Assembly (NCBI RefSeq): GCF_964213995.1
Contig: NC_135817.1
Span: 70,928,001-70,992,000, forward strand
Direction of reading: 5' to 3'
Length of the DNA stretch: 64,000 nucleotides
Origin: Mustelus asterias
Taxonomy: Eukaryota
A program made the position numbers and the translations under genes. The notes beneath the pieces are model-generated. The model was not told the DNA's origin. It worked only from the letters and a program-made list of their open reading frames with translations, and made no database searches. This document shows positions 14,411-32,765 of this stretch, piece by piece. The stretch's first letter is position 1. Every line of letters begins with the position of its first letter.

Positions 14411-15565
14411 GCTCAGTGCTTCTTCTCCGTTTGTCTTCTTTCTTCTGTTTCTTCTCCACCGTATCGGACCCCGGATAGGGGTCTTTTCTCCTGCTGGACC
14501 ATATCCAGCAGACTCCCCTGAGACTGCTAATTAGATAGTTACTGCACAGTCCACTCCACAAGCCTGCAGTTCTTGTCCAATTCTAGGTAAACAAGACTCC
14601 CCTGTGCATGACCGCACTTAATATTCCTCAGTGATAAGATGCAATTTCACCATTTCACATTTCAGACCGGTTTAAAGCACAACAGTTTTTCATGAATCTT
14701 TCGCTTTGCAGATCAACACACAGACAAAATGCATAATTCCTACACATTCCATGGTACTAACACCATAAACCAGCAGTGTAGCATGTCCGGCAGTGAGCCA
14801 TATCTGCCTCTGACTGTTACCATCCTATATGCTGCATCTTCTATGCCTTTGGCCTTGCAGGAGATGGCACAGTGCCACATAGCACTGAATAAAGTGAGCA
14901 AAACCCCTCCACTGTCTATGCCAGGTAGATGTGACAGTGTCTACAGATATGGTTGTGGGCATCTTTCTGGGTTCAGCGAACAAGGCTTTTGCATCAACCT
15001 GATATGACTTCTTTATCCAGAACCAATGAGATGTACAACATATTGTGATTGGAGTGCTTATGAAGAAATTATTGTTTAACATCTAATCTTGGATGAACAA
15101 TAATTTTGTTTGGAAAGACCAAAGACATTTTCAGTTGATTCCTGCCACAGCAAACTCCATACACTAATCCCAATATCCTCCTTCTACCCAGCCACTGTCC
15201 CAAATTAAACTGGTCTGTTCACAACCCTGCCATCTTATTACACTCTGAGATACGTTTCCTACATCTTCCCCAGCGCTAAAATTGTTGACGTCATCTCAAT
15301 AACATTTTCCAACTCCAAATCGATTTCAATTCTCTGACTGATAAAGCGTCATTCTTGCCTTTAACATTTCCAGACATGATTAGTCCAGTAGTTACCTGAC
15401 CAGCTCGTTATATTCCAAATTCCTCAAGCAGCAGCTCCACCAAAACTCAGATTCCTCCGACTGCTCCCCCACTCCTTCCCCCCACACCACCCCCCGCCGA
15501 TCCAAATTAGGCTCACACTGTTCACTGTTGTAAAGTTAAATTTCTAATTTCCCTATCTAAATTCT

Positions 15566-16525
15566 TCCTTGCTGTACGCTATCTCTATAATTCACCTTGC
15601 TGTACCCTATCTCTATAACTAAACTTGCTGTACCCTATCTCTATAACTCACCTTGCTTTACCCTATCTCTGTAACTCACCTTGCTGTACCCTATCTCTAT
15701 AACTCACCTTGCTGTACTCTATCTCTGTAACTCACCTTGCTGTACCCTATCTCTGTAACTCACCTTGCTGTACCCTATCTCTGTAACTCACCTTGCTGTA
15801 CCCTATCTCTATAACTCACCTTGCTGTACTCTATCTCTATAACTGACCTTGCTGTACCCTACCTCTGTAACTCACCTTGCTGTACCCTATCTCTATAACT
15901 CAACTTGCTGTACCCTATCTCTATAACTGACCTTGCTGTACCCTATCTCTATAACTCACCTTGCTTTACCCTATCTTTGTAACTCACCTTGCTGTACCCT
16001 ATCTCTTTAACTCACCTTGCTGCACCCTATCTCTGTAACTCACCTTGCTGTACCCTATCTCGATAACTGACCTTGCTGTACCCTATCTCTCTAACTCACC
16101 TTGCTGTACCCTATCTCTATAACTGACCTTGCTGTACCCTATCTCTATAACTCACCTTGCTTTACCCTATCTCTATAACCCACCTTGCTGAACCCTATCT
16201 CTATAACTGACCTTGCTGTACCCTATCTCTATAACTCACCTTGCTGTACCCTATCTTTGTAACTCACCTTGCTGTACCTTATCTCTATAACTCACCTTGC
16301 TGTACCTTATCTCTATAACTCACCTTGCTGAACCCTATCTCTATAACTCACCTTGCTGTACCCTATCTCTGTAACTCACCTTGCTGTACCCTATCTCTGT
16401 AACTCACCTTGCTGTACCCTATCTCTGTAATGTACCTTGCTGTACCCTATCACTGTAATGTACCTTGCTGTACCTTATCTCTATAACTCACCTTGCTGAA
16501 CCCTATCTCTATTACTCACCTTGCG
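15566..16525 (+). repeat. Minisatellite, 28-bp unit CACCTTGCTGTACCCTATCTCTATAACT, about 34 copies
   Basis: Directly visible tandem array with variant units (TATAA/TGTAA, CTCAC/CTGAC). Confidence 0.97.
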
Positions 16526-17395
16526 GAATCCTATCGCTAGAACTTCCTCCTACTCTACAAGCTCCGACTGATACCTCTGCCCTTTGATGGTTGTGCATCC
16601 ACAGCTATTTCCTTCATCTCACCATTCGAAGCTGAGTTTCAGCCATTCAGGCTCAACGCTCTGGAATTTCCTACCTGAATTCCATCATCTCTTCTTGTGG
16701 TCCAGCTTCTGATTAGGGTCCCTAACCTTTCCTTCTTTGTCTCAGTTGTTAATTAGATGCTGAATGCTTATTGAATGTTGTACAACTTACTTTTTTATGG
16801 ACGCACTTGTTTAGTCAATGATTTTTTTTTCAGAATTCTATTTGGTTTCATTGTTGTTTTCATTTATATTTGAAATGATAGAACATGTAAAAAAATCAAT
16901 TTACAACTTACTTTAATACTCTGAATTGGAAACAATAAGCATTATGCTTATTGCTAACTTTGGTAAATTTGCACTAAAGCCTCGGTCCTATTCTGCTCCA
17001 TTTTATTTCTGAACACACTAGTTTCATTGCTTGGAGTTCTAAAGGTCTAAGGTTGTTTCAAACTTTTGACTTTGGTGTGATTTAGTTAATCTTTAATCCA
17101 ACAACAGGAGAAGTTTATGAGTTTTTATCGGGCTGCTTTTTTCCAGGCCCCATGATGACGGTTGCCTTTCCACCAGCAGAGAAGGTTCTGGTGGGTGGGG
17201 ACCCTAATCAGCTGACAAGGCATGGGGAAAAGCAACCACTTAGGTTTATTACAGACCCAATTAATTCTGTTTTTTGCAAATGAGCTGCTATGTTACTGAT
17301 GGCGGAGCAGCGCCTCTGCCTTACACAGAGGTCCCATCTCCATGGAGACCACTTCCCTATGCCAGGCCAGAGGCTGTTGGAGCCTATGGCCGCAA

Positions 17396-18946: not shown

Positions 18947-19027
18947 TGAACAGGACACTCCTCACCACACCCATCCCAACAATGTTCTCACAGATCTAGA
19001 AGCACCATATCCCACACCACTGCAAGT

Positions 19028-19335
19028 TTAAAGTTTATTTATTAGTGTCACAAGTAGGCTTACATTCACACTGCAATGAAGTTACTGTGAAAATCCCCTC
19101 ATCGCCACATTCCGGCGCCTGTTCAGGTACACTGAGGGAGAACTTAGCATGGCCAATGCACCCAACCAGCACGTCTGTCAGACTGTGGGAGGAAACAGAA
19201 GCACCCGGAGCAAACCCACGCAGACACGGGGAGAACGTGCAGATTCCGCACAGACAGTGACCTAAGCCGGGAATCAAATCTGGTTTCCTGGCACTGTGGG
19301 GCAGCAGTGCTAACCACTGTGCCACCATGCTGCCC
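19028..19335 (-). mobile_element. HE1-related SINE, alternative tail
   Basis: As 4560-4875, reversed. Confidence 0.88.
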
Positions 19336-22145: not shown

Positions 22146-22243
22146 ATAGTTTACGATGAAGTAATATTGACTGCTATTTGGAAATTGGATCATAAATTTC
22201 ATGTACTTTTATTTTAACCTAATTCTGCTCTAATTCCTTTTAG

Positions 22244-22570
22244 GTGAGAGCATTATAGGCATCATTTCCAAGGACGTTGTTTTGCCGTGCAAATTTCAAC
22301 CAGCACCTTTGTCTGAGATAGTGCTTCACTGGATGCGCGATTTGCCTACAGGGACCATTGTGGTTCACAGCTTTTATCGAGGGACAAATCAGCTATCCAA
22401 GCAATATCAAAGCTACATTGGAAGGACAAAGATTTTTATCGATAAGATAATGAATGGCAATGCATCCCTTCAGCTTGCAGGAGTTAATATGGCTGATGAA
22501 GGACTGTACCAATGTTACATCAGTACGTCAGAAGGAAAACGTGAAATGGTTACCTTCCTACAAGTGGCTG
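22244..22570 (+). CDS. HHLA2: HHLA2 first IgV domain exon
   Basis: ttccttttAG|GT GAG...GCT G|gtcaga. GESIIGIISKDVVLPCKF...LHW...VVHSFY...GRT...GNASLQL...DEGLYQCY...FLQVA has B7-type V-set motifs. Confidence 0.9.
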
Positions 22571-24238
22571 GTCAGATATATGCCATTTTCCATTGAAATG
22601 TATTTTCTGTGAACTGGGTTTTGATTAGAAAGTAATAGAATGTGAAAACTCTCAAGGCGTGATTTTACAAAAGAAATTCTAACTGCCGAACGAACGTGAA
22701 AATGGGAGAGAATCGCACTGGTTTTTTGGGCGAGCTATGAGTCGCAAACCTATGGCACTTAGCGTAAAAAAGTGCCAGGGTGTGATTCTCGCCAGCAAGG
22801 GGGGAGTGGAGCCTTAGCTCACCGGGAAAGCCAGATGCTGAGCTCTTGGGGCGCCATTGTCCAGATCTTCCAGAGATCTCTCGCCGCCTTCCCCCACCTG
22901 CCCCATGGACATCGGGTACCGCCCCACGCCAATCGCCTCATGCCAGTCTATCTCCCAATAGATATCGGACGCTCCCCACCCACGCCTCCAATCATCCCCT
23001 ATGCCGGTCAAACCCCCTCACCCACCACACAGACATCGCCACCCATCCACGCCGATCGCCCCCATCTGCAAAGTTATCTCCCTCCCACTCTGATCGCCAC
23101 CCCGACACAGTTATGGTACCCGGTGGGCAGTGCCAGGCTGTCCAGTTGGCACTGCCAAGGTGCCAGGGTGCCAGGCAGGCACTTCCAGGCTGGCACTGTC
23201 CCATGGGCACTGCCCAGCCCTTCCCCTGACCACCCGGAGGGCTTCAATGGCCTCCAATTCTCCTGGTGTGGCCATCATGACTGGTCTCTGCTGGTGAAGT
23301 TCATCTGTGATTCTCGCTGGGGGGGGAGCCTCGAGCGGTGAGGTGGTTAAGCTGACTGAGTCCAGATGATAGCTAAGCTTGTCATTAACATTTAAATCGG
23401 CTTTGCACCATTTCTGGACGTGAGGCCAATTTCTCCAGCTAAACAGGGCCTGTGTGATGAGTGGAGAGAGAAACCAGATGCATTTCTCATTTTTTGCCTC
23501 TCTCCCGATCTTACCACCTCACCTCGCCAAAAGTCAGGCGGGACGAGATTGTAAGACCACGTCCTAAATCTTATTGAGGAGTCAAGGAACTACATTTATA
23601 ATATAATCTCAAAATAAAATAAGTTTTAAAAAATGTACATAGAAAGATAGGAACAGGAGAAGGTTGGTTAGTGCCTTTCATATCTGCTCTGTACCTCAAC
23701 TCCATCAATCTGCCTTTGACCCATATCCCAAAGATACCCTCACATACAGGAGGACAAACACTGAGATATAAAATTTCAAAGGATGCTGTTTCAATTCAGC
23801 ACCGACTGGGGTGAAACATCTCAAAGCAATTCATATCATTAATGGATGTGAAATTCAGGACATGGTCAAGGCTGTACTGACACACGGAGCTGACAACACA
23901 ATGCAAAACCTTAAAAGAATAAACCTGGGAACGAGTGAGAGGAAATCTAAAGTTTAAAGTTAAAGTTTATTTATTAGTCACAAGTAGGCTTACATTAACA
24001 CTGCAATGAAGTTGATAAATATAATATTATGATAAATATAATATTAAATCGTACATTAATACTTATTCAGAAGTGGGGGAATTTTAGCTTTGTGGAATAG
24101 TTTAAAATGTCTGATAGCGAATCAGCAGACAGTTTTACATTTCTTCTGCTTTTGATTGCCATTATTACATGTGCAGCTGAATAGTAATATCTCTGAGAAG
24201 CTAAGTTGTCTTAATAATGGATTCTTATTTCTTCTCAG

Positions 24239-24532
24239 CTGAATGGAAGAATGTAAAACTCGATCCCCCAAACATGTTGAGTCCTGCAGACAGCGCAGGA
24301 AATATTACCTGCTCTGCCTCTGGGGCCTATCCAAAACCATCATTACTATGGCAAGATGAGAATGGGAATAACTTAACTAATCAAGCAAGTTCAAAAGACT
24401 CTATTGATGCAGAAGGATTACACAATGTTAAAAGAATTTTGAAGATTGATCGACTATCAAACAAAACCTACAAATGCAATATTAAGAATGAACGATTGCA
24501 GAAGTCATGGACTGCAACCTGGAAAATGCAAG
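24239..24532 (+). CDS. HHLA2: HHLA2 IgC domain exon
   Basis: cttctcAG|CT GAA...CAA G|gtaaca. ITCSASGAYPKPSLLW...YKCNIKNERLQKSWTATWKMQ resembles the remembered human HHLA2 segment YECTIENSLLKQTWTGRWTMK. Confidence 0.9.
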
Positions 24533-24583
24533 GTAACAATTGATGAATAATCCTTAAAGAAACCTCCCAAATATTACAGTTAG

Positions 24584-24865: not shown

Positions 24866-25114
24866 CCATTAGGGTTTACTAATATGTAAAATATTACAGG
24901 ATTGCTTCAATACTCGAATTCGATATAAATTGATTATTGAACAATACTTGTAGTTGCAGCATTTTCTGTGGCTCATATCTTCCTCTTTGTCAAATTAAGT
25001 GAACTGCTAGGAAGCTCTATGCTCCTGGGATCAAATTTGAAGCACATCGCTTTGTTGTATTTTTGCATTATGTTACCCACAAATGGCTATGTGGGTAAGT
25101 GTATAGAGTGTAAC

Positions 25115-25409
25115 TGATGCGCGTCAATGAGCACATGGAATCAAGGCTTTAGTATTGAAGGCTTTAATACAGTAACAATGAAACTACTAACACGAATACA
25201 CCAGTTCAGACTGAAGGGGTCCTGCCGGAGCAGGGGGTCTTATACCCTGCCACCGGAGGCGGGACCCCACTGGAATGTGCCATGGTAACACTTATAACAG
25301 GTAAACACCCTAACCCAACAACATAGTACAACCCCCACAGTAATAACACCCTAGCCCAACAGTAACATGGTAACAAACCCCAGTGGTGAACCAACGATGG
25401 TTCACCACA
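25115..25409 (-). repeat. 3' LTR
   Basis: Direct repeat of 29540-29834, preceded on - by a polypurine tract at 25423-25410. Confidence 0.96.
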
Positions 25410-25483
25410 TTCACCCCTCCTTTAGGAACAAAAGGTGGCGGGGTGGACGAAAACAGACAATAACAAAAAAAAAATCACAGGAT

Positions 25484-28400
25484 TCACAAATCCAGACGGT
25501 CTGGAGGACCGCACCGACGCTGCGATCTCCTCAACACCGGTTGCGAAACCGGAGCAGGTGCCGATCTCTTCAACACCGGTTGCGAAAAGGGAGCAGGTGC
25601 TTGTAGTGGCTCTCTCCAAGTAACGTGTGGCTGTCCCCTCAAGGACTCCCGGGCCGGCCAGCCCTGGTGAGGCGATGGTGCAGGGGATCCTGGAACGTTT
25701 GGTGGTGGTGGTGGTGGTGATGATGGTGGCGCCGATCTCCGAGTCTCAGGCAAGCTGTACATGGGAGTAAAAGTGTTATGCACTGGTCCCGGTGCTGACC
25801 GCGCCACGTCTGGGGAAGTAATGAGGAGTAGTGGATTTGTGACTGGGGGAATAGGAGCGACAGGGGTTGCTACGTCCCCTGCGGGCGCCAGGTCTCTAAT
25901 GGAGACAGTGTCCTCTCGCCCGTCAGGATATGCCACATAGGCATACTGAGGGTTGGCGTGGAGGAGTTGGACCGGTTCGACCAAGGGGTCGGACTTGCGA
26001 GACCTCACATGGCGCCGCAGAAGGACGGGTCCTGGGTACGTCAACCAGGCTGGCAATGAGGTCCCCGAGGACGACTTCCGAGGGAATGAGAACATCCTCT
26101 CGTGGGGAGTAGCATTGGTTGCCGTACACAGGAGGGAGCGGATAGCATGGAGCGCATTTGGAAGGACCTCCTGCCAACGGGAGACTGGAAGGCCCCTGGA
26201 TTTCAGTGCCAGTAGGACAGCCTTCCAGACTGTAGCATTCTCCCTTTCCACCTGTCCGTTACCCCTAGGGTTGTAGCTCGTGGTTCTACTAGAGGCAATC
26301 CCGAATGAGAGCAGGAATTGCCTCAAGTCGTTGCTCATGAACGACGAGCCCCTGTCGCTATGAATGTAGCAGGGGTACCCGAACAGGGTAAAAAGTTCAC
26401 TGAAAACCTTGATGACGGTGGCAGTTGACGTGTCCGCACAGGGGAAAACAAACGGAAACCGGGAATATTCGTCTATTATATTGAGAAAATAGACATTCCG
26501 GTCCGTTGAGGGAAGGGGGCCCTTAAAATCCACACTCAGCCTCTCAAAAGGGCGAGTGGCCTTGACCAAATGTGCCCGGTCTGGTCGATAAAAGTGTGGT
26601 TTGCATTCTGCGCAAATCCGACAGCTTCTAGTTACTGACCTGACATCCTCCACCGAGTAGGGCAGGTTGCGGGCTTTGATGAAGTGGTAGAGTCTGGTGA
26701 CTCCAGGATGACACAGATCATTGTGGAGAGCCTTCAAGCGGTCCTCCTGCATGATGGTGCATGTTCCGCGCGAGAGGGCATCCGAGGGCTCATTGAGCTT
26801 CCCTGGACGATACATAATATCGTAATTATAGGTGGAGAGCTCAATTCTCCACCGCAAGATCTTATCGTTCTTGATCTTGCCCCTCTGCGTGTTACTGAAC
26901 ATAAACGCCACGGATCGTTGATCCGTGATCAGGGTGAACCGCTTACCTGCCAGGTAATGGCGCCAGTGTCTGACTGCCTCCACAATGGCCTGAGCCTCCT
27001 TTTCCACCGCTGAGTGCCGAATCTCTGGGCCTTGAAGGGTGCGGGAAAAAAAACGCGACGGGCCTGCCTGCCTGGTTTAGTGTGGCGGCTAGGGCGAAGT
27101 CAGATGCATCACTCTCCACCTGGAAAGGGATGGATTCATCCACCGCGTGCATCGTGGCTTTCGAGATGTCGCTTTTCAAAACCTTGAAGGCCAATTGGGC
27201 CTCCGGCGTAAGTGGGAAGGTCGTGGACTTAATGAGCGGACGAGCTTTGTCCGCGTAGTTGGGGACCCACTGTGCATAATACGAAAAGAACCCGAGGCAT
27301 CTCCTCAGTGCTTTCGTGCTAGCGGGCAAGGGAAGTTCAGTGAGTGGGCGCATACGGTCTGGATCAGGGCCAATGACCCCGTTTTCCACCACGTATCCGA
27401 GGATGGCTAACTTACGCGTACGGAATACGCACTTCTCCCTGTTATAGGTCAGATTCAGGCGAGATGCAGTGCGCAGAAAGTGTTGGAGATTCGTGTCGTG
27501 GTCCTGCTGGTCATGGCCGCAGATGGTGACGTTATCCAGGTACGGGAAGGTAGCCCGCAACCCATTCTGGTCCACCATTCGGTCCATAGCACGCTGGAAG
27601 ACCGAGACCCCATTGGTGACACCAAATGGAACCCTGAGGAATTGGTATAGACGACCATCCGCCTCAAAGGCCGTATATTGTCGGTCCTCTGGGCGGATGG
27701 GGAGTTGATGGTAGGCGGACTTAAGGTCTATGGTAGAAAACACTCGGTACTGCGCAATCTGATTGACCATATCAGAAATGCGCGGGAGAGGATACGCATC
27801 CAGCTGCGTGTATCTATTAATGGTCTGACTATAGTCGATGACCATCCGAGGTTTGTTCCCGCTTTTGACTACCACGACCTGCGCTCTCCACGGACTAGCA
27901 CTGGCCTGTATGATCCCTTCCTTGAGGAGCCGCTGAACCTCAGATCTAATAAAGATCCGGTCCTCAGCGCTGTAACGCCTACTTTTAGTAGCGATGGGCT
28001 TGCAGCCAGGTACCAGATTTTTAAAAAGGGATGGTGTCGTGATCTTCAGGATGGATAGATTGCACGCGGGGCGCTTTGGGCAATTTGGAGGCTGCGGCTG
28101 GTTCCCTACTGCCAGTGAAGGGAGTGGCCCACCGTACTGTAGGATCACACTCTTCATGTGGACCATAAAGTTTAGTCCGAGGAGAATTGGCGCGCAAAGG
28201 TGAGGTAGCACAAGGAGCCTGTATTGCTCGTAAACTGTGCCCTGTACCTCAAGAGTTACCATACATCGTCCTTGGATCGGTACAGACCGGGACTGTGATG
28301 CCATGGAAATTGTCTGTTTGGCAGGGAGAACCCGGAGTCCACACCTTTTAGCAGTTTCAGGGTGTATGAAACTTTCGGTGCTCCCACTGTCAAACAGACA

Positions 28401-29516
28401 ATTCACAGTTCTGCCACTAACCTTTACCTCCATCATAGAATGTTCCAGTCTGTAATGCCTGGTCTGATCCAGAGAGATCGACGCCACCGTTGGCCCCTGG
28501 GCGTCACTGCATGCTGCCGATGTGGATGCTGAGGACCCCTGCTGGTCGCTCCTAGTCGTCGTGGACCATGATGGCCGCCCCCATGAATCGCACGTGGGCG
28601 AGGGCGCCAAGCGCAGCGACTCCTGGTGGTCTTCCTCCTCCTCTGTTTGCCACGATGGCGCCGTCCTGAGATCGCACGTGGTCGGACCTCGTGGGTACTG
28701 CGACGCCGAAAGAGATGGTCTCCGTTCTGGAGGGTTACAAGCTGCACTGCCGTTTTTAGGTTTGGACCTGCAGACTTTGCCGTAGTGGCCTTTTTTACCG
28801 CACTGGCTGCAGATTGCCGTTCTTGCCGGACACTGTTGCCGTGGATGCTTGGCCCCACCGCAAAAATAGCATCGCTGGCCACCTGGAGCTGCCGCCGTCG
28901 TCGAATCGATCTGAGAGCGCGGGTTCGCGGGGCGAGGAGGGAGCAGAGCTTGCTCCAACCACGTTGACTGCACGTGGTCCTCGGGGTACAGCGCCAAGCT
29001 CTTCGACGCCGCCTCCAACCTCACGGCCATCCCCATTGCCTGGGTCAAGTTGAGTTTCCCCTTTTCTAGTAATTTAAGCCTGATGTACGAGGACCCTACC
29101 CCTGCTACGAACGCGTCTCGGGCGAGGTCGTACATATACTGCTCGGCGGAGACGTCCTTACAGTCGCAACCCCTGGCAAGCTGCAGGAGCTCATTGGCAT
29201 AATCCTCTATGGTTTCGCCCGACTGCCGACGTCGTGTAGCGAGGAGGTAACGAGCATGTATCTCGTTGGGTGGCGTAATGTACCTATTCTTTAGGAGCTC
29301 GACGGCACCCTGGTAAGTGGGAGCTGCACGAATGGCTAGGTAAATCGTGTCGCTTACCCTCGCGTGGAGGACCTGGAGTCTATCACTGTCCGTAGTGATA
29401 GCTACCGAGGCTGCCAGGTAGTCCTCAAAGCACTTCCACCAATGGTCGAATGTGTTAGCTGCACCGACCGCACGCGGGTCCAGTGTCAGACGATCCGGTT
29501 TTAGGATCTGTTCCAT
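25484..29516 (-). CDS. Gag-Pol polyprotein, split by one +1 frameshift in the T8 run at 27046-27053
   Basis: Two Zn knuckles (CYFCGGAKHPRQQC, CSQCGKKGHYGKVC), protease LFDSGS, RT (DLKSAYHQ, PFG, YLDN), RNase H (SDASD, EKEA, ITDQ), integrase HHCC plus DDE (VDF, HSDRG, GQVER). Removing one T restores VAFFSRTLQGPEIRHSAVEKE. Confidence 0.93.
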
Positions 29517-29539
29517 ACTCTCTGTTTACTGTATTAAAT

Positions 29540-29834
29540 TGATGCGCGTCAATGAGCACATGGAATCAAGGCTTTAGTATTGAAGGCTTTAATACAGTAA
29601 CAATGAAACTACTAACACGAATACACCAGTTCAGACTGAAGGGGTCCTGCCGGAGCAGGGGGTCTTATACCTCGCCACCGGAGGCGGGACCCCACTGGAA
29701 TGTGCCATGGTAACACTTATAACAGGTAAACACCCTAACCCAACAACATAGTACAACCCCCACAGTAATAACACCCTAGCCCAACAGTAACATGGTAACA
29801 AACCCCAGTGGTGAACCAACGATGGTTCACCACA
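29540..29834 (-). repeat. 5' LTR
   Basis: Identical to 25115-25409 except a CT/TC dinucleotide. TATAAG 29669-29664, Inr-like TCAGT 29639-29635, ATTAAA 29593-29588. Confidence 0.96.
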
Positions 29835-30076
29835 GTAACCAAGTCAATTCCACCGCCGCCTCCCCACCCCGCAAGTCAAGACACAAATCATTTTTGTTCA
29901 AGTCAAGTCACTAGTTTTCCAATTCCTGTAATGCTTTCTTCACCACCCAGATAGGGAAATAAATGACACGTCCTTCCTAAGATTCACTTCCTGCAGCAAT
30001 AATGTCACAATGAATGCAGGGGGCCCTCATTGTTCCTACAGTGCTATCAAGTATCTTGCTGAATTTTTAAAGGAAC

Positions 30077-30380
30077 CATAGAATCTCTACAGTGCACAAG
30101 GAGACCATTCGGCCCATCGGATTTGCGCCAACTCTCCAAAAGAGCATCTTAACTAGGCCCATCTCCCCCACCTCACCCCTTCCCCATCCTTGTAACCTCA
30201 CACATATACCAAGGCTCATCCGCCTAACCAGCACGTCTTTGGACTGTGGGAGGAAACTGGAGCATCTGGAGGAAACTCACGCAGACACAGGGAGAACCTG
30301 CAAACTCCACACAGACAGTGACCCAAGGCCGGAATTGAAGGCAGGTGAGGCAGCAGTGTTAACCACTGTGTCACCATGCC
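30077..30380 (-). mobile_element. HE1 SINE
   Basis: Core plus CR1-type tail, reversed. Confidence 0.8.
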
Positions 30381-30863
30381 GACCTGCCGAACCTTCACCC
30401 ACATAGAGAATGGATCCTTTTCTCCTTGTTTCCTGTACATTTTACAACATTATAACTCCTGCTGCTGACTTCAAAGGCACAAGGAACAGTTTTGCTTGCG
30501 CACTCAGCCAACAAACCATTGGAAGACATCTGCATTTAGCATCCAGCTGGAGAACTAGTTATTGCTGCTGGCATTGATGCTACTTTCTTATTACTATCTT
30601 CATCTCTTACCGTGACGGTTTGCTATCCTGATCTTCAATTTCAGGCATACCTTTAGGGTGCAATATGCAATAGCTGCAAGACCAACTTCTGTATCACTGT
30701 AACTACACCTATGCCATGTGCAGGAAGTGCTCCCCCTAGTGTTACAGCACAAATAAATACAACCATTTTACAATGGGCTCTCTAAAGTTAAAGTTAAAGT
30801 TTATTTATTATTGTCACAAGTAGGCTTATATTCACAATGCAATGAAGTTACTGTGAAAATCCC

Positions 30864-31308: not shown

Positions 31309-31623
31309 ATCCCCTAGTCACCACACTCTGGCGCCTGTTCAGATACACTGAGGGAGAATTTATCATGGCCAATCCACCTAACCTGCACATCTTTGGACTG
31401 TGGGAGGAAACCGGAGCACCCGGAGGAAACCCAGGCAGACACGGGGAGAACATGCAAACTCCACACAGGACAGTGACCCAAGCCGGGAATCGAATCCGGG
31501 CCCCTGGTGCTGTGAGGCAGCATTGCTAACCACTGTGCCACCCATTGCCACTTGAGTACACAAAATGGGAAAAGTAAAATAATGTTTTATGTTACACGTT
31601 AAATATTTTGGGTTTTTTTTCAG

Positions 31624-31932
31624 ACTGGTTGAATGAAACGGAGGATAAATACATTGCCATGATCTGCGGCAAGTTCGCCTACAATGGTCAGGAGTTGAAA
31701 ATTAGATGGAAGTTTAGGGAAACAGAAAGCTCTCAATTGGTGATGATATGTGAATCAATCTACCAAAATGGAGATATAAACTCAAGTTGTAAGAAGAACC
31801 AATCAGTCGTGTTGAGCAACCGGACACATTCATCCCTTATACTGCGAAATATAACTTTGGAAGATGCAGGGGAATATATCTGTGAAATCACAACCAGTGA
31901 TATGACGCAAATGTACACCTACACTCTAACAG
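31624..31932 (+). CDS. HHLA2: HHLA2 second IgV domain exon
   Basis: ttttttttcAG|AC TGG...ACA G|gtaagc. MICG...IRW...SLILRNITLEDAGEYICEITTSD. The V-C-V architecture is characteristic of HHLA2 among B7 proteins. Confidence 0.88.
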
Positions 31933-32085
31933 GTAAGCTGTCAATAATTTTTGGCTACAGGTTAAAATTTGATTAACTTGTTCTTTAACCTTGGATATAA
32001 ATAAGGCATTAGTGTTTTGTAAAATGAGTGTTCAATGTAAAATAAATGTACTTTCTTAAATCCTCATAACTCTAGACTAGAGTGT

Positions 32086-32765
32086 CATAGAATCATAGAA
32101 ACCCTACAGTGCAGAAGGAGGCCATTCGGCCCATCGAGTCTGCACCGACCACAATCCCACCCAGGCCCTACCCCCACATATTTTACCTGCTAATCCCCCT
32201 AACCTACGCATTTTAGGATTCTAAGGGGCAATTTTTAACCTGGCCAATCAACCTAACCCACACATCTTTGGACTGTGGGAGGAAACCGGAGCACCCGGAG
32301 GAAACCCACGCAGACACGAGGAGAATGTGCAAACTCCACACAGACAGTGACCCGAGCCGGGAATCGAACCCGGGACCCTGGAGCTGTGAAGCTGCAGTGC
32401 TAACCACTGTGCTACCGTGCCGCCCCGAGTGTGGGCAGTTTTGAGTGAGGCCATCCAGAAACTGTTAAAGTTTATTAATTAGTGCCACAAGTAGGCTTAC
32501 ATTAATGCTGCAATGAAGTTACTGTGAAAATCCCCTAGTCGCCACAATCCGGTGCCTGTTCAGGTACACTGAGGGAGCATTTAGCATGGCCAATTCACCT
32601 AACCAGCACGTCTTTCAGGCTGCAGGATGAAACCGGAGCACCCGGAGGAAACCCACGCAGAAACGGGGAGAAAGTGCAGACTCCACACAGACAGTGACCC
32701 AAGCCAGGAATTGAACCCGGGTCCCTGGAACTGTGAGGCAGCAGTGCTAACCGCTGTACCACTGT
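32086..32765 (-). mobile_element. Two adjacent SINEs: HE1 (32086-32425) and alternative-tail form (32465-32765)
   Basis: Same head and core, different 3' tails. Confidence 0.9.

Follow-up and report, generated by a model that had tools for sequence, protein, structure and literature searches.

The window, the whole 64,000-nt stretch of Mustelus asterias DNA that was analysed, carries on its minus strand a 4,720-nt Ty3/gypsy element (29834-25115), the features of which are collected in Table 1. LTRs, target-site duplication, purine tract and the order PR-RT-RH-IN were all found, as in the Ty3/gypsy class, and the closest solved structure to the element's RT is Ty3 RT (E 1.5e-39). The two LTRs differ at two positions, 29672-29673. 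The gag-protease-RT frame ends early because the frame of this copy is interrupted in RNase H; in sister copies open frames reach up to 1,336 aa, indicating that gag-pol is one frame in the family. The earlier note had described a non-chromodomain element with two zinc knuckles, and this description held: there is no Pfam chromo match in the window element or listed among its 120 best homologues, both CCHC knuckles are present, and two knuckles were found in the Gag of 68 of 78 long homologues. At the integrase tail, where a chromodomain would sit, we observed a duplicated stretch and a proline-rich CCA repeat (25560-25620 and 25700-25730, minus strand).

Table 1. Features of the element, in coordinates of the window
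Feature	Position	Strand	Remarks
Target-site duplication GTTAC, 5' side	29835..29839	-	
5' LTR	29540..29834	-	295 nt, TG...CA
TATA-like box TATAAG	29664..29669	-	predicted promoter
Initiator-like TCAGT	29635..29639	-	predicted +1 = A at 29637
Arm, 5' copy TTACTGTATTAAA	29588..29600	-	candidate primer segment; predicted +38 to +50; ends in ATTAAA
ATTAAA at arm end	29593-29588	-	predicted poly(A) signal
Predicted cut site	between 29588 and 29587	-	
Predicted inner helix	29544..29587	-	starts at first base after arm (GCC), closes on U5 end, ATCAA unpaired
Single A spacer, LTR end to primer site	29539	-	kept across lineage
Primer-binding position TTTAATACAGTAA	29526..29538	-	exact complement of arm, no TGG
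gag-protease-RT reading frame	26943..29516	-	gag ATG at 29516
Two CCHC zinc knuckles	28770..28871	-	aa 216-229, 236-249
RT active-site motif YLDN	27531..27542	-	YxDN, not YxDD
Remaining RNase H and integrase, second frame	25484..27076	-	no chromodomain match
Polypurine tract	25410..25423	-	
3' LTR	25115..25409	-	295 nt
Arm, 3' copy	25163..25175	-	rival primer; predicted working poly(A) signal
Target-site duplication GTTAC, 3' side	25110..25114	-	

The window subfamily is young, with 90 copies matching its leader pattern and the best 40 of these at 99-100% identity, and the sister group has 790 5' junctions in the genome. Named homologues occur in sharks and rays, at 74-81% over RT-RH for most of the best, and outside these in cnidarians, a tunicate and an ant (59-63%); no relative was found in viral contigs. 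The YxDN motif was present in 99 of 123 homologous RTs (proteins P0002-P0128) of this recently active lineage. According to the accessible text of PMC2148107, the same D-to-N change in Ty1 kept polymerase activity, about 200-fold slower, and abolished transposition, a defect partly rescued by RNase H changes. We found no report of a natural YLDN in any RT in the literature searched. The window copy is in antisense orientation within a B7-type host gene, between its Ig-domain exons; Ig V-set and butyrophilin/CD80-like C2-set exons are at 22234-22596, 24205-24543 and 31578-31976 on the plus strand. The window also holds a tandem array with a 28-nt period (about 15400-16700) and abundant short interspersed repeats of many copies (19027-19325, 30070-30400, 32087-32762 and others), which we take to be shark HE1-type SINEs and CR1-type LINE ends. 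In a public protein model named "PRKR-interacting protein 1 homolog" (P0001), a Gag of this lineage, 80% identical to the window Gag, is fused behind host exons, reflecting either misannotation or genuine splicing into a copy located in an intron.

The leader that follows the LTR-terminal CA consists of an A, a 13-nt complement of an LTR segment and nine more bases, for 23 nt before the gag ATG. We refer to the LTR segment as the arm and to its complement as the primer site. The earlier note had reported a leader of this length with no TGG, in which the primer site is the exact complement of an arm containing ATTAAA, and the coordinates bore out each of these points. This ATTAAA is the sole AATAAA or ATTAAA in the window LTR. 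A complement of at least 13 nt at any of six offsets arose in 1 of 20,000 dinucleotide shuffles of the LTR (analytic expectation 3e-5), and a chance match was rejected on this basis; the same measure at the 3' LTR flank of the element gave 5 nt. The leader as a whole was not unusually stable (z -0.31) and its stability was dropped as evidence; the evidential signal is register and covariation, not folding energy. Within the window subfamily both 13-mers are intact in 85 of the 90 copies, while each of the other five, read by eye, carries one one-sided change.

Covariation between arm and primer site was extensive among close relatives. The close set comprised the 90 sister junctions listed first of the 790 (91 matches, with one tandem duplicate), retrieved with a pattern that fixed the first seven bases of the primer site; with three more copies added, 91 of 93 were anchored and two were left out for a changed hexamer. 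Over 13 positions in these 91 copies, 1179 of 1183 cells were Watson-Crick pairs and none was G-U, and at the four positions that were both free and variable 361 of 364 cells paired. Pairing ends at position 15-16. The arm types form a single-step series (ACAC, AGAC, TGAC, TGAT, TGCT), each step of which is mirrored in the primer site, and two copies (L201 and L250) combine one arm type in the LTR with another in the primer site. Across 88 copies the four variable positions differ by 48% on both sides; the corresponding figure is 0.5% in the 13 LTR bases that follow and 4-8% over the remainder of the LTR. Where the 5' and 3' LTR arms differ, the changes mostly followed insertion and do not discriminate between the two copies as primer. 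The four bases 5' of the hexamer change at roughly ten times the rate seen in the rest of the LTR (L200-L289), as either a mutational hotspot or a subfamily-specific priming code.

The same relationship was observed in distant relatives. A distant Gag protein located 89 genomic copies, 86 with a callable LTR end; 51 of the 86 had at least 12 perfect pairs at offset 1, and the 35 with fewer than 12 are older, decayed copies. In the control, 47 3'-LTR flanks, the complement never exceeded 8 nt. In this wider set AATAAA-to-ATTAAA switches and the length of A runs were mirrored in the primer site, and 13 of 1105 cells were G-U pairs. Among the best 80 of 276 metagenome loci, whose Gag is 31-43% identical, upstream sequence was available in 69, and a stem of 10-21 nt was present in 49. 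The stem begins directly after CAA in 44 of the 49 and comprises 19 distinct sequences, and at nine loci a 3' LTR confirms the LTR end to the base; among the 20 stemless loci are copies that have decayed or been rearranged. Sister subfamilies and marine relatives share the register LTR-CA, A, complement, and the compensatory changes between the two 13-mers that the earlier note had proposed to look for were found in close and distant relatives alike.

In tRNA-primed Ty3/gypsy elements a TGG site receives the tRNA 3' end. This feature was absent at the shark and marine junctions: no TGG occurred within 8 nt of the LTR end at 178 shark junctions (91 of them preselected by pattern) or at 44 marine ones. 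The longest complement to a host tRNA was 7 nt for the window and at most 8 nt for the 18 shark types, in a comparison of 78 genes of only 10 anticodon types, mostly Lys and Thr. The 37 different primer-site sequences (18 shark, 19 marine) cannot all fit one fixed primer, and this diversity is a stronger argument against a tRNA than the gene search. Genes for tRNA-Lys(UUU) and tRNA-Thr were also seen in a large tandem array that repeats about every 1.8 kb (L312-L341, G000 C16).

It could be argued that the helix only masks the poly(A) signal of the 5' LTR or gates the start codon, and that a tRNA fragment, a small RNA or a protein serves as the primer. Consistent with this, the arm ends in AATAAA or ATTAAA in 18 of 18 shark types, switching only between these two, and the hexamer of the window copy is predicted to be paired in the 5' context (probability unpaired 0.00-0.19) and partly open in the 3' context (0.09-0.81). 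Retroviruses with a poly(A) signal in R require its occlusion, achieved in HIV-1 by a stem-loop and U1 according to the available portion of PMC12789967, where reference titles also point to promoter proximity as a known alternative to helix masking. The limited range of the tRNA comparison also leaves room for a tRNA fragment. Masking alone, however, does not need a register fixed to one base of the LTR end, and the site varies too fast for a fixed primer. G-U pairs, moreover, are nearly absent (13 of 1105 cells in the wider set and none among the close copies), the helix is kept in 7 of 19 marine types that have another hexamer at the arm end (5 of these with no canonical hexamer nearby), and the by-products described below require a DNA end in the primer site. 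We therefore regard masking or start-codon gating as the sole function of the helix as improbable. As for masking in addition to priming, occlusion of the signal at the 5' LTR is plausible in sharks, at about even odds; it would be a side effect, likely in sharks and not general. Two patterns for poly(A)-tailed retrocopies marking the cleavage site returned 0 matches in a search that skips simple repeats.

With regard to the position of the arm in the transcript, the TATAAG and TCAGT motifs were located where the earlier note had placed them, 32 nt apart. In 17 of 18 shark types the TATA-Inr spacing is 31-34 nt, and the distance from the Inr down to the arm end is 50-64 nt. This motif spacing would place the arm of the window element at +38 to +50, making the predicted primer an internal one. 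The 19 marine types yielded no TATA-Inr pair, and the internal position is therefore argued for sharks only. LTR junctions were not enriched at the predicted +1 (1 match versus 2 in the control). In one 5' LTR (L389:1496-1520), a single case, the predicted +1 directly follows the first 11 nt of U3, with 2-3 nt of microhomology at the joint. If transcription instead started at the arm, the element would be of the ordinary Tf1 type, with the first 13-15 nt of its RNA as the primer. The marine types, which have no upstream TATA-Inr pair, would accommodate such a start, as would the fact that +1 is predicted only. The spacing conserved in shark types argues against it, as does the lack of a TATA about 30 nt before the arm in these types; a hexamer within the first 13 nt would also leave little R, and one run-on copy (L374, below) stops at the upstream Inr. 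We consider a start at the arm quite unlikely.

The sequence behind the arm suggests where the primer might be released. The arm is followed by GCC or ACC in nearly all types, and in 15 of 18 marine types, compared with 4.0 expected, a helix starts from the first base after the arm, its first pair being G-C, G-U or A-U. In 11 of 18 shark types, including the window, an inner helix is predicted to close on the U5 end with a 5-nt bulge, ATCAA, whereas many marine types have a local hairpin as their second helix, so that the topology may differ. The cut would fall just behind the hexamer, at the junction of the two helices, and may be made by the RNase H of the element as in Tf1, with which the lineage shares a helix adjacent to the predicted cut. 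Tf1 requires a three-duplex structure, the pretzel, with the primer at the mRNA 5' end (PMC10085805, accessible text). Two of the three duplexes have counterparts in the shark/marine lineage and the third, which involves sequence downstream of the primer site, does not: z was below -1.65 in 2 of 36 cases (mean z +0.19), and this duplex was set aside as unsupported, although U5 of the window copy can pair with the AUG region (z -0.6).

Further evidence came from copies that appear to be fossils of reverse transcription. One close-set copy has an 18-nt tail beyond the normal leader, and two pattern searches for a complement extending past the leader returned 22 matches (control 1) and 21 matches (control 0). 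Run-on structures accounted for 17 of the 22 and 21 of the 21, giving 38, the remainder being four normal elements of other subfamilies and one unrelated match. Run-on copies continue from the primer site into inverted LTR sequence, and all turn at the last A of the arm. Eight are palindromes of the form LTR-A-inverted(arm, R, U3) with 5-bp target duplications (L293, L295, L297, L306, L309, L372, L377 and L382), which indicates that they formed before integration; clean palindromes end at the U3 start. Eight copies extend for 18-51 nt. Of these, L298 is an otherwise normal element with the primer site extended to 21 complementary nt, L300 runs on for 28 nt and then jumps into pol, and L290 is a lone LTR that bears an 18-nt tail but is flanked by no duplication, resembling the integrase-independent Tf1 inserts that use a primer-site tail (PMC11042837, accessible text). 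In L374 the run-on is 51 nt long and reaches the predicted +1, with an ambiguity of 2-4 nt; the opposite end joins U5 to pol at the arm junction over a 9-nt microhomology. This is the shape that a 5' primer carrying strong-stop DNA would give.

Most run-on copies reach further. While 1 of 38 stops at the predicted +1, 30 of 38 pass it into U3, and in L291, L304 and L381 the run-on reaches the purine tract and pol. Read on the other strand, L381 consists of pol-PPT-U3-R-arm joined to minus-sense U5 and R to about +6. L291:1214-2360 is an LTR followed by an inverted, internally deleted whole element flanked by an ACCAG duplication; it ends in U5, the end of which has been restored through a very small fold-back at the palindrome TGATGCGCATCA. 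In addition, six lone LTRs (L367, L370, L371, L373, L378 and L303), of at least three subfamilies, carry a 24-31 nt minus-sense piece of the U5 end at the arm/GCC junction, with full U3 upstream of the arm and, in four, exact duplications. Together these fossils show that DNA ends lay in the primer site and were extended in the register that priming requires. Run-on into U3 would be compatible with snap-back, mispriming on a second RNA and 3'-end priming alike.

The covariation, the register, the fossils, the helix, the +1 stop of L374 and the Tf1 precedent all argue for priming from the arm, and we consider it likely that the element primes from this segment of its own RNA, in one or other of its two copies. 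The arm would pair with the primer site and be extended as the minus-strand DNA primer. The core of the proposal in the earlier note, that an internal LTR segment primes in place of a tRNA, is supported by covariation, register, the stacked helix and the fold-back products. The start, cut and poly(A) sites of the element are all predicted ones. Of the two copies we lean, modestly, towards the 5' one. The primer would then be capped and about 50 nt long, with only its last 13-15 nt paired, and first-strand transfer would depend on the short segment that separates the cut from the poly(A) site. Plus-strand synthesis would copy the primer back into the primer site, which could produce the fast two-sided change, and a plus strand ending in a primer-site copy could snap back on the arm to give the palindromes. 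Because a 5' primer alone cannot template the run-on that passes +1 in 30 of 38 copies and reaches pol in three, either snap-back or a second RNA would be needed in addition.

The 3' copy of the arm, at the 3' end of the same or of a co-packaged genomic RNA, could pair with the primer site as well. The earlier note had also held that the helix can form only at the 5' LTR, and since the arm is present in the 3' LTR too, this is true of the local hairpin alone. If the 3' copy primed, the cut behind the hexamer would remove the poly(A) tail, the RNA would be closed into a loop, and the whole of R upstream of the arm would serve first-strand transfer. The run-on past the predicted start into U3 and, in three copies, into the purine tract and pol is what such a primer could template, the joint in L381 and the full U3 upstream of the arm in the six insertion LTRs fit it also, and the local hairpin of marine types could form at that end too. 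However, snap-back of plus-strand DNA accounts for the clean palindromes that end at the U3 start, L374 ends at +1, the predicted inner helix of sharks needs a U5 end that would be absent from the RNA 3' end, local folding prefers the 5' copy, and the literature searched holds no precedent. We regard priming from the 3' copy as rather unlikely. Equally tentative is a broader picture in which the genomic RNA of a metazoan-wide Gypsy lineage with a YxDN RT supplies the primer at its 3' end, the helix turns that RNA from a message into a template, and a self-copied code of four bases keeps the priming of each subfamily its own.

Self-priming is best known from Tf1, Tf2 and Tj1 of fission yeasts and from Tf1/sushi chromoviruses (PMC10085805, PMC4600332, PMC6317226 and PMC11042837, each in its available text). 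The Tf1 primer is the first 11 nt of the RNA (PMC10085805), whereas motif spacing in sharks would put the arm 38-50 nt inside the transcript. About half of Tf1 cDNA retains a copy of the primer site (PMC11042837). With these elements the window lineage shares a primer site just after the 5' LTR that is complementary to an LTR segment and has no TGG, as well as a primer-site copy on the cDNA 3' end, seen here as genomic tails and fold-backs. The window lineage differs from Tf1/sushi in having no chromodomain, two CCHC knuckles, no support for the third duplex and an RT that is mostly YxDN; since the tests for a chromodomain and a third duplex failed, we did not file it under Tf1/sushi. Two CCHC knuckles are a trait of the Mag lineage. 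Compared by features only, Mag, SURL and Jule share with the window lineage these knuckles, the absence of a chromodomain and a wide metazoan spread. In HIV-1, which primes with a tRNA, a helix buries the AAUAAA of the 5' R copy, as the helix here would. The HIV-1 hairpin is local (PMC12789967, available portion), whereas here the partner is the primer site.

For the plant TAR copia elements (Houba, Osr-1) and Tcn1, self-priming has been predicted from an LTR complement 0-5 nt after the LTR (PMC6317226). The same kind of complement is inferred in those elements and here, and they show that self-priming arose outside Tf1/sushi, but they are copia or chromovirus elements of plants, and the accessible text of that paper describes no overlap with a poly(A) signal. 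Dictyostelium Skipper, fungal GalEa and bivalve TRIMs are likewise without a tRNA primer site and have had unconventional priming proposed; Skipper has a polypyrimidine tract and no LTR complement (PMC5006619, in its available part), and the GalEa and TRIM hairpins lie in the internal region (PMC6934838, likewise). We found no description of the present arrangement in the literature searched, which was mainly open access, so that an earlier mention elsewhere, for example in Repbase or GyDB, is possible. It is not mentioned in the accessible parts of PMC3601003, PMC6238403, PMC13524379 and PMC8220671, and a motif search of five of the six supplementary files of PMC6238403 gave no match.

Experimental proof of priming without a tRNA has come from Tf1, and predictions have centred on its chromovirus relatives and a small number of plant copia groups; in every case the primer was the RNA 5' end. 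The present lineage is not one of chromoviruses, ranges from cnidarians and tunicates to sharks, and appears to prime from an internal segment ending in a poly(A) signal. If this is true, one helix and one cut tie priming, the choice of 3' end and the end of translation together. Since the genome keeps its own record of the intermediates, in the form of tails, insertions and palindromes that all turn at a single base, sequence data allow the mechanism to be mapped. Such elements would escape silencing by tRNA fragments and would be missed by annotation pipelines that demand a tRNA primer site, and their palindromic by-products add long inverted repeats to the host genome.
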